Shown here: one piece after another, positions 51,216 through 57,430 of the stretch | How positions within the stretch are numbered: the first letter of the stretch is position 1 | Layout: the number at the start of each line of letters is the position of its first letter | Source of the DNA: Escherichia coli | Lineage (GTDB): Bacteria > Pseudomonadota > Gammaproteobacteria > Enterobacterales > Enterobacteriaceae | DNA: 64,000 nucleotides | Strand: one strand, 5' to 3' | Assembly (NCBI RefSeq): GCF_016026235.1 | Contig: NZ_CP065613.1 | Notes under the pieces: generated by a model | What the model was told of the DNA's origin: nothing | Databases searched by the model: none | Seen by the model: only the letters and a program-made list of their open reading frames with translations | Made by a program: the position numbers and the translations under genes

Positions 51216-52283
51216 TTAACTGAACTTACTCTGTGCCCACATCACGCCGCTGGCATACTCCGGCGGCAGCAGCGGGATTAAGGCTTCCAGCGTCGCGGAC
51301 AGACGCGATGTGTCGCTGTCGGTCAAATTCAGATGCCCCACTTTACGGCCCGGACGGACTTCTTTGTCGTACCAGTGCAGATGCACCAGCGGCAGTTTCA
51401 GCCAGTCATAATTCACATCGCTACCAATCAGATTGATCATCACCGACGGATTATTCACCACTGGTTGCGGTAACGGCAGATCGGTAATCGCCCGCAGATG
51501 TAGCTCAAACTGGCTGATGCTGGCACCGTTTTGTGTCCAGTGACCGCTGTTATGCACACGCGGTGCCAGTTCGTTGATCAACAGACCTTGCGGGGTGACA
51601 AAACACTCCATTGCCATCACGCCTACATAGCCCAGCTCCTGCATAATCGCCGAAAGCATCTCTTCGGCTTGCGCTTGCTGCTGCGCATTGGCCTGCGGGA
51701 AAGCGACGCTGGTGCGCAAAATACCGTCCTGATGCAGGTTATGCGTCAGCGGATAAAACACGGTGCTGCCATCAAAGCCGCGCGCGCCAACCAGCGACAC
51801 TTCACCAGAGAAGTTTATGCCCTGCTCGACAATACATTCGCCGTAGCATTCAGCCGGTAACTGTTCGGTTTCATCGGCGCGTAAACGCCATTGACCGCGT
51901 CCGTCATAGCCACCAGTGCGACGCTTAACAATCGCCAGCTCACCTAAACGATCAAACACCGCAGGCCACTCGCTGCGTTCGGCAAGTAACTGCCACGGTG
52001 CAGTCGGCAGGTGGAGCTTATCGAAAAGCTGCTTCTGAGTCAGACGGTCAGCAATAATCGGGAACACATCGCGGTTCACAAAGGCCGGATGGCGCGCCAG
52101 CTCGCGGGTTAATGCGGTTTCCGGCCAGCGTTCGATCTCAGCGGTAATCACGCTTTGTTGAAAAGGCACCGCCGCCGGTTCAGCGTCCAGCCCGACCGGC
52201 CAGACAGCAATGCCTAACGGTTCGCCGGCCTGGCGCAACATACGGCCTAACTGCCCGTTCCCGAGGACGCAAACCTGTTTCAT
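51216..52283 (-). CDS. purK: N5-carboxyaminoimidazole ribonucleotide synthase
   Basis: 355-aa ATP-grasp ORF recognised as PurK. Confidence 0.95.
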
Positions 52284-52789
52284 GCCGCACCTCGCGGGTC
52301 CGGGTTTTCCAGCACTTCGTCGGTCTGGGCTTTGCGCCAGTCATTCAGACGCTGGTGCAGTTCTTTATCATGAGTCGCAAGAATTTGTGCTGCCAGTAAC
52401 GCCGCGTTTGCCGCGCCAGCTTTACCAATCGCCAGCGTACCCACCGGAATGCCACGCGGCATTTGTACGATAGAGTAGAGGCTATCGACACCGCTCAGTG
52501 CGGCGCTCTGTACTGGCACGCCCAGCACTGGCACCAGCGTTTTGGCGGCAATCATGCCTGGCAGGTGCGCTGCGCCGCCTGCGCCCGCAATAATCACCTG
52601 ATAACCGTTCTCTTCGGCGCTTTCGGCGAAGCTGAACAGTTTATCGGGGGTGCGGTGAGCAGAAACCACTTCAACGTGGTGCGGGACATTCAGGATTTCG
52701 AAGATTTCGGCGGCGAACTGCATGGTAGCCCAGTCGCTTTTGGACCCCATCACGATGGCGACACGCGCCGGATTATTGCGGGAAGACAT
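52280..52789 (-). CDS. purE: N5-CAIR mutase
   Basis: 169-aa ORF from [16 protein letters not shown]; overlaps the purK start by 4 bp. Confidence 0.95.
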
Positions 52790-52860
52790 GCGTCTTAAAA
52801 CTCCTGTGGTGCACAACTCTCGGCTTTAGAGGGCACAGAGAATAGCACGGAAAGAGAGCA

Positions 52861-52876
52861 AGGAAAACGGTTGCGT
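52861..52876 (-). promoter_or_regulatory. PurR box (ACGCAACCGTTTTCCT on the coding strand) upstream of purEK
   Basis: Close match to the pur-operator consensus ACGCAAACGTTTTCGT, about 72-87 nt upstream of the purE start. Confidence 0.65.
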
Positions 52877-52906
52877 GGCTGTGAAATCAGCAAAGTTGCG
52901 GGTTTT

Positions 52907-53629
52907 TTAAAACGGAAAATGAATTAGCTCAACGTCATCCGCCGTGACTTTCACCATCGAACCTTCCGTATGCCAGGCACCCAGTACCACGCGAAAAGCA
53001 GGTTGCTGATTGGCGATAAGTTCATGCACCGCCGGGCGATGGGTATGCCCGTGGATCAGCCATTGCACCTGATGTTTTTCCATCGCACTGACTACCGCGT
53101 TTTGGTTAACGTCCATGATCGCCAGCGATTTACTGCTGTTGGCTTCTTTACTGTTCGCGCGCATTCGCGCGGCAATGCGTTTGCGCATAAACAACGGCAG
53201 AGCGAGGAATAGCGTTTGCAGCCAGGGTTTGTGGACTTTGGTGCGAAAAGCCTGATAACCCGCGTCATCGGTGCACAGCGTGTCGCCATGCATAATCAAC
53301 ACCCGACGACCATAAAGTTCGAGCACCTTTTCTTCCGGCAATAACGTCATGCCGCTTTCACGGGCAAAGCGTTTGCCGAGCAGAAAATCACGGTTGCCAT
53401 GAATGAAATAACAGGGAACGCCGGAATCGGACACCGCTTTGATCGCTGCCGCCATCTGGCGATGGAGTGGGTTGGGATCGTCGTCGCCAATCCACGCTTC
53501 AAACAGATCGCCAAGAATATACAGCGCGTCGGCCTTGCGAGCTTCCCCCGCTAAAAAACGCAGAAAACCGGCGGTGATCGCCGGTTCTTCCACGCAGAGA
53601 TGAAGATCTGCAATAAAGAGTGTCGCCAC
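52907..53629 (-). CDS. lpxH: UDP-2,3-diacylglucosamine pyrophosphatase
   Basis: 240-aa calcineurin-like metallophosphatase ORF. Confidence 0.93.
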
Positions 53630-56563: not shown

Positions 56564-57430
56564 TTACTCACCCTGTGGATCATGATATTCAACGCACGCC
56601 TGAAGCGTGTTTTCAATCAGCGTGGCAACCGTCATCGGGCCAACGCCGCCCGGAACAGGCGTAATGTATGAGGCGCGTTTAGCCGCGTCTTCAAACACGA
56701 CGTCGCCCACAACTTTGCCATTTTCCAGACGGTTGATGCCGACATCAATCACAATTGCGCCTTCTTTGATCCAGTCACCGGGAATAAAACCTGGCTTACC
56801 GACGGCAACGATCAACAGATCGGCATTTTCTACGTGATGACGCAGATTTTTAGTGAAGCGGTGAGTCACGGTAGTGGTGCAACCTGCGAGCAACAGTTCC
56901 ATGCTCATTGGACGACCGACGATATTCGATGCGCCAATCACCACTGCGTTGAGGCCGAAGGTATCAATGTTGTAACGCTCAAGCAGCGTGACAATACCGC
57001 GCGGGGTGCAGGGACGCAGACGCGGCGCGCGCTGGCACAGGCGACCGACGTTATAAGGATGGAAACCGTCCACGTCTTTGTCCGGATGAATACGTTCCAG
57101 CACTTTGACGTTATCAATACCCGCCGGTAACGGCAGTTGAACCAGAATGCCATCGATGGTGTTGTCGGCATTCAGCGCATCGATAAGCTCCAGCAGCTCC
57201 GCTTCGCTGGTGGTTTCCGGGAGGTCATAAGAGCGGGAGACGAACCCGACTTCTTCACAAGCCTTGCGTTTGCTTGCGACATAAATTTGCGATGCAGGGT
57301 TACTACCCACCAGCACAACGGCCAGTCCTGGTGCCCGCAGTCCGGCTGCAATACGCGCCTGAACTTTTTGAGCAACTTCAGAGCGCACCTGCTGCGCAAT
57401 CGTTTTACCGTCAATAATCTTTGCTGCCAT
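56564..57430 (-). CDS. folD: Bifunctional methylenetetrahydrofolate dehydrogenase / methenyl-THF cyclohydrolase
   Basis: 288-aa ORF recognised as FolD. Confidence 0.95.

Follow-up and report, generated by a model that had tools for sequence, protein, structure and literature searches.

The purEK operon considered here lies within a stretch of 64,000 nucleotides of Escherichia coli contig NZ_CP065613.1, referred to below as the window. The genes lpxH, purE and purK are all encoded on the minus strand, with lpxH separated from purE by a spacer of 117 nt. The mechanical open reading frame of purE opens at a TTG codon at 52816, and the RefSeq annotation gives the gene a length of 510 nt, which makes the ATG at 52789 the start codon and therefore places the PurR box discussed here 72-87 nt upstream of it. 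By window position, and in the order in which they are read on the minus strand, the features of the locus are as follows:

53629-52907, minus strand: lpxH (Pfam Metallophos)
52861-52876, minus strand: pur box ACGCAACCGTTTTCCT, the PurR operator (-45 to -30, with the purE transcription start as +1)
52862-52867, minus strand: hexamer TTTTCC at the -35 position, -36 to -31, matching TTGACA at 3/6 positions, placed by its spacing
52839-52847, minus strand: extended -10 element TGCTATTCT, conserved at a fixed distance from the box
52847-52846, minus strand: TG of the extended -10 element, -16 and -15
52844-52839, minus strand: -10 hexamer TATTCT, -13 to -8
52831, minus strand: purE transcription start (+1), from the start of Kim et al. 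(2012) mapped by way of the motif coordinates of Cho et al. (2011)
52790-52830, minus strand: purE 5' leader, with the Shine-Dalgarno sequence AGGAG at 52801-52805 and no unusual structure
52280-52789, minus strand: purE, encoding N5-CAIR mutase (RefSeq, 510 nt; Pfam AIRC, E = 2.7e-64)
51216-52283, minus strand: purK (RefSeq), second in the operon and sharing 4 nt with purE

On the plus strand the box reads AGGAAAACGGTTGCGT, the reverse complement of the sequence given above for the coding strand of purE. It is an imperfect palindrome of 16 bp with a CpG at its centre, composed of the left half ACGCAACC and, on the other strand, the right half AGGAAAAC, and in this form it conforms to the consensus ACGNAAACGTTTGCNT of E. 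coli-type PurR operators. When set against the perfect palindrome ACGCAAACGTTTGCGT, the box agrees at 13 of 16 positions and has three mismatches. Both C8 and G9 of the central step (positions 8-9) are there, and this CpG was invariant in 112 of 112 species among the matches listed. In the 1994 crystal structures of PurR with the purF operator by Schumacher et al., the hinge-helix leucines are reportedly intercalated at the central CpG.

Searching the 64-kb window with ACGCAAACGTTTGCGT and up to three mismatches returned one match where 0.57 were expected, and at least one match was obtained in 48 of 100 shuffles, so that this search is not significant taken alone; for this reason a leave-one-out matrix was used instead. 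For the position weight matrix, the PurR motifs listed by Cho et al. (2011; PMC3159470, Table 1) other than that of purE were used, 27 in all. Scored in this way, the purE box reached 19.5 bits and was the top match across both strands of the window, with an exact tail probability of 1.6e-7 per position, which corresponds to 0.02 matches expected per window; inside the 117-nt spacer between lpxH and purE, about 3e-5 would be expected. Dinucleotide-preserving shuffles of the window attained 19.5 bits in 13 of 300 cases. Under the same leave-one-out treatment the published PurR sites ranged from 7 to 25 bits, with purE mid-range.

A sequence-only reading of the window had proposed a PurR box upstream of purEK at 52861-52876, closely matching the pur operator consensus and starting codon-proximally about 72-87 nt before the ATG of purE. 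The sequence it quoted is exactly that of the coding strand, its strand, coordinates and distance are correct, and the near-match to the consensus is upheld by the palindrome agreement and the matrix score; the box itself is borne out by this score, by its conservation and by the identical 16-mer in the published literature.

The published evidence for PurR binding at this site is of several kinds. In the ChIP-chip data of Cho et al. (2011), the PurR region for purE-purK spans MG1655 positions 552127-552626, with a log2 enrichment of 2.08 with adenine vs. 0.86 without it, and the motif assigned to this peak, at 552395-552410, is identical to the 16-mer of the window (PMC3159470). The same 16-mer is one of the 15 known PurR sites of RegulonDB (Table 2 of PMC2585596). 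Purified PurR has also been observed to shift a purE promoter fragment in EMSA, a result resolved at the level of the fragment, with guanine or hypoxanthine strengthening the binding, and this corepressor enhancement was gone in a Y73A/R190A/T192A ligand-pocket mutant (PMC12858057, 2026). At base level, the case for these 16 bp being needed rests on the ChIP motif assignment together with the RegulonDB curation. Deletion of purR led to derepression of the purine-synthesis genes, and the same study ties PurR control of these genes to how E. coli survives in blood (PMC12858057). In published data, purEK is counted among the directly repressed PurR genes. Comparison with the known purE operator and a PurR EMSA were the two checks named in the sequence-only reading, and on both of them these published results speak in its favour.

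The box is located at the promoter of this purine-synthesis operon, with purE as the downstream gene. The transcription start table of Kim et al. (2012) places the purE start at NC_000913 552365 on the minus strand, supported by 32 reads and followed by a 5' UTR of 42 nt, and the string given upstream of this start, CAGCCACGCAACCGTTTTCCTTGCTCTCTTTCCGTGCTATTCTCTGTGCCC, is identical in the window (PMC3415461). With +1 at 52831, the 42-nt leader up to the ATG at 52789 is recovered. The hexamer TTTTCC lies 17 nt upstream of the -10 hexamer and entirely within the 3' half of the operator, and its distances from the conserved -10 and from the published start point to it as the hexamer occupying the -35 position. 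Within the extended -10 element, each of T, G, T, A, T and the last T is the same in 111-112 of the 112 species (matches listed, anchored on the box). A generic sigma-70 scan of 52600-53100 returned no promoter, as the weak -35 and extended -10 fall below the thresholds of such a scan, and the promoter assignment therefore rests on the published transcription start and on conservation. A riboswitch or leader RNA in E. coli was considered as well and was rejected, given that an Rfam scan of both strands of 52650-53050 returned no family and that the purE leader folds no better than its shuffles (z = 0.61).

To assess conservation across the Enterobacterales, a degenerate pattern of purE codons 14-26, which leaves the box outside, was run against a single genome of each species. 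At least 120 Enterobacterales loci were matched, and the 112 loci described here are those among the matches listed that have at least 300 nt of upstream flank. The best match to the PurR matrix scored 17.1-25.3 bits and had the same orientation in all 112 of these listed loci, at a distance of 108 to 198 nt from the purE coding pattern. With the listed loci anchored on the box, the mean information content per column was:

45 nt upstream of the box: 0.21 bits
16-bp box: 1.9 bits
13 nt directly after the box: 0.64 bits
C-r-TGnTATnnT block: 1.53 bits
about 10 nt around the start (cTg.GcCCTc): 1.05 bits
further downstream of the start: 0.21 bits

Inside the box, appreciable variation among the 112 listed loci was confined to position 1 (A/G) and position 7 (C/T/A). 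The footprint of the purE promoter across species is made up of the box, a variable stretch of 16 nt ending in TG, and then the -10 hexamer TATTCT.

Two further observations concern the region downstream of this footprint. The stretch G.GCCCTC across the purE transcription start, at 52829-52836 on the minus strand, is conserved in most of the 112 species among the matches listed, with its C, C and T positions fixed in 110-111 of them; it is G+C-rich and discriminator-like, and judging by its sequence it may be of relevance to ppGpp/DksA control. In Yersinia, Pectobacterium, Symbiopectobacterium, Rouxiella, Dickeya and Hafnia, the purE leader is around 80-130 nt long rather than 42 nt, and these longer leaders (loci L044, L058, L059, L021, L061, L036, L039, L041 and L075) open with a conserved stem, GCCAG...CTGGC(C)GACGC, soon after the predicted start. 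No leader family was returned by Rfam for longer leaders from Yersinia, Pectobacterium, Edwardsiella and Hafnia (L044, L021 and L075 included). The locus of Yersinia artesiana (L044) does carry a match to the sRNA Ysr224 (RF02770, 103.7 bits) at 1966-2072 on the plus strand, which lies downstream of the match to the purE pattern by around 1.6 kb and is unrelated to the pur box.

Within E. coli, the 301 nt around the site were found in 5425 of 5426 complete genomes, annotated as lpxH / purE. The window is chromosomal E. coli DNA. In 4159 genomes a 65-nt stretch about the box is the same as in the window, and two more haplotypes, of B2-type strains, account for 416 and 452 genomes with the box intact in both, so that at least 5027 of the 5426 complete genomes carry one of three haplotypes of 65-66 nt in which the box is identical throughout. 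The strain of the window departs from K-12 ER3413 by one base in lpxH, which is upstream of the box. In E. albertii as in B2-type E. coli, the DNA upstream of the box gives way to another gene, a hypothetical ORF of 330 nt lying between lpxH and purE (WP_001188440/WP_001188438). It occupies positions 967-1296 of the locus from E. coli S65EC (L124), corresponding to around 52877-52906 of the window, and is also seen in APEC O18, Nissle 1917, ATCC 11775 and E. albertii L002; a Pfam search with the inserted 109-aa ORF of the B2 strains returned no match. In the genomes that carry this ORF, homology to the window restarts 1-3 nt upstream of the box, which shows the conserved promoter module to have the box as its upstream edge.

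Taken together, these observations leave very little doubt that the element is the PurR operator of the E. coli purEK operon, and no evidence contradicting this was found in the present analysis. The operator is already known, a standard example of the feedback control of de novo purine synthesis, and the present analysis changes nothing that is known about it; rather, a textbook operator was correctly recognised from raw sequence. PurR, a dimer of the LacI/GalR family, binds the 16-bp operator once it carries hypoxanthine or guanine as corepressor, and both this binding and the regulation are established by the published data. At -45 to -30, the operator covers the -35 position of a promoter that appears to combine a weak -35 with an extended -10, and bound PurR would most likely stop RNA polymerase from engaging the purE promoter or from forming a productive complex there. 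Transcription of purEK goes down with a plentiful supply of purines and up with a scarce one. The position of the box across the -35 fits repression by blocking of RNA polymerase, and occlusion of the -35 as the means of repression is suggested by the geometry of box and transcription start.

The purEK operator of E. coli K-12 at MG1655 552395-552410 has the same 16-mer, position and flanking promoter, and the element of the window is without differences from it. The operators of cvpA-purF (AAGAAAACGTTTGCGT), purL, purMN, purHD, purC and purT are, like that of purE, imperfect palindromes of 16 bp with a central CpG, at which PurR acts with hypoxanthine or guanine. The purE box differs from these other initiation-type pur operators in having C rather than A at position 7 and TTTTCC in its right half, and its matrix score of 19.5 bits compares with 25.2 bits for purT and 22.0 bits for purF. 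Cho et al. (2011) counted 32 promoter regions under direct PurR regulation, and in 14 of them the motif lies between -35 and -10 (PMC3159470). The intragenic operators of purB and purR share both repressor and motif with purE, but these sites lie inside coding sequence and block elongation, whereas the purE site is at the promoter. The PurR of Bacillus subtilis belongs to an unrelated protein family and has a different DNA motif; the two systems are not homologous, and the PurR/PurBox system of that organism has only its name and the controlled pathway in common with E. coli PurR. A review describes B. subtilis PurR as PRPP-responsive and as having a binding site for PRPP, in contrast to E. 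coli PurR, whose corepressors are hypoxanthine and guanine.

Some additional roles for the box may be considered alongside that of an initiation operator. It is a minor possibility that the right half GTTTTCCT is doubly constrained, either as part of the -35 region or through tuning towards sub-maximal affinity, and that PurR might also block read-through from lpxH. Taken singly, a roadblock to lpxH read-through by PurR at the purE box, similar to that at purB, appears improbable, and it would in any case complement the main explanation rather than compete with it. A terminator scan of 52600-53100 found none, including in the stretch from the lpxH stop (52907) to the box, and with no terminator-like structure at 52877-52906 and lpxH co-oriented with purE, read-through into purEK is conceivable; roadblocking by PurR is documented for purB, as cited in Cho et al. 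(2011; PMC3159470). Set against this are the dedicated purE start, with its 32 reads (PMC3415461), and the presence of another gene between lpxH and purE in B2 strains.

It would be very surprising if the box were instead kept mainly for RNA polymerase, as a -35 or an upstream element, with PurR incidental or with another regulator of the LacI family as its main ligand. The 3' half of the box does coincide with the -35 position, and GTTTTCCT is invariant or nearly so in the 112 species among the matches listed despite its departure from TTTGCGT of the PurR palindrome, and both points speak for this reading. The 5' half ACGCAAC, however, lies at -45 to -39, upstream of any -35 hexamer, yet is equally conserved. 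This half is also G+C-rich, whereas the UP elements of sigma-70 promoters are A+T-rich. TTTTCC itself agrees with the -35 consensus at only three of six positions, all 16 bp of the box fit the PurR matrix, and the occupancy of the site by PurR responds to adenine. A fortuitous match that plays no part in regulation is so improbable as to be negligible: the yield of the palindrome search (1 match vs. 0.57 expected) and the 13 of 300 shuffled windows that reach the matrix score would allow for it, but the question is settled by a box that hardly varies across all 112 Enterobacterales species among the matches listed while its flanks have diverged to noise, and the box sits precisely where a purine-synthesis operon has its promoter, in a region to which the ChIP-chip peak, the RegulonDB listing and the EMSA all assign PurR.

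Apart from the purE operator, the second-best match to the PurR matrix in the window, GGTAAAACGATTGCGC, lies at 57394-57409 on the minus strand, with a score of 15.4 bits and 0.3 such matches expected per window. It covers codons 8-13 of folD (CDS 57430-56564), and the exact 16-mer is kept in 26 of 28 Enterobacterales folD genes. Ravcheev et al. (2002) reportedly mention folD as part of a predicted gamma-proteobacterial PurR regulon. A ChIP peak at folD is absent from the table of Cho et al. (2011; PMC3159470). Synonymous positions in folD codons 5-14 are 89-100% fixed across the 28 genes, with the exception of D7, compared with mostly 32-86% for codons 15-50, where one codon reaches 94%. From its sequence, the folD box could be an intragenic PurR operator of the purB kind, or its conservation could stem from the demands of translation initiation. 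Since the constraint extends beyond the box itself, PurR binding and translation-initiation constraints both remain candidate explanations for it.
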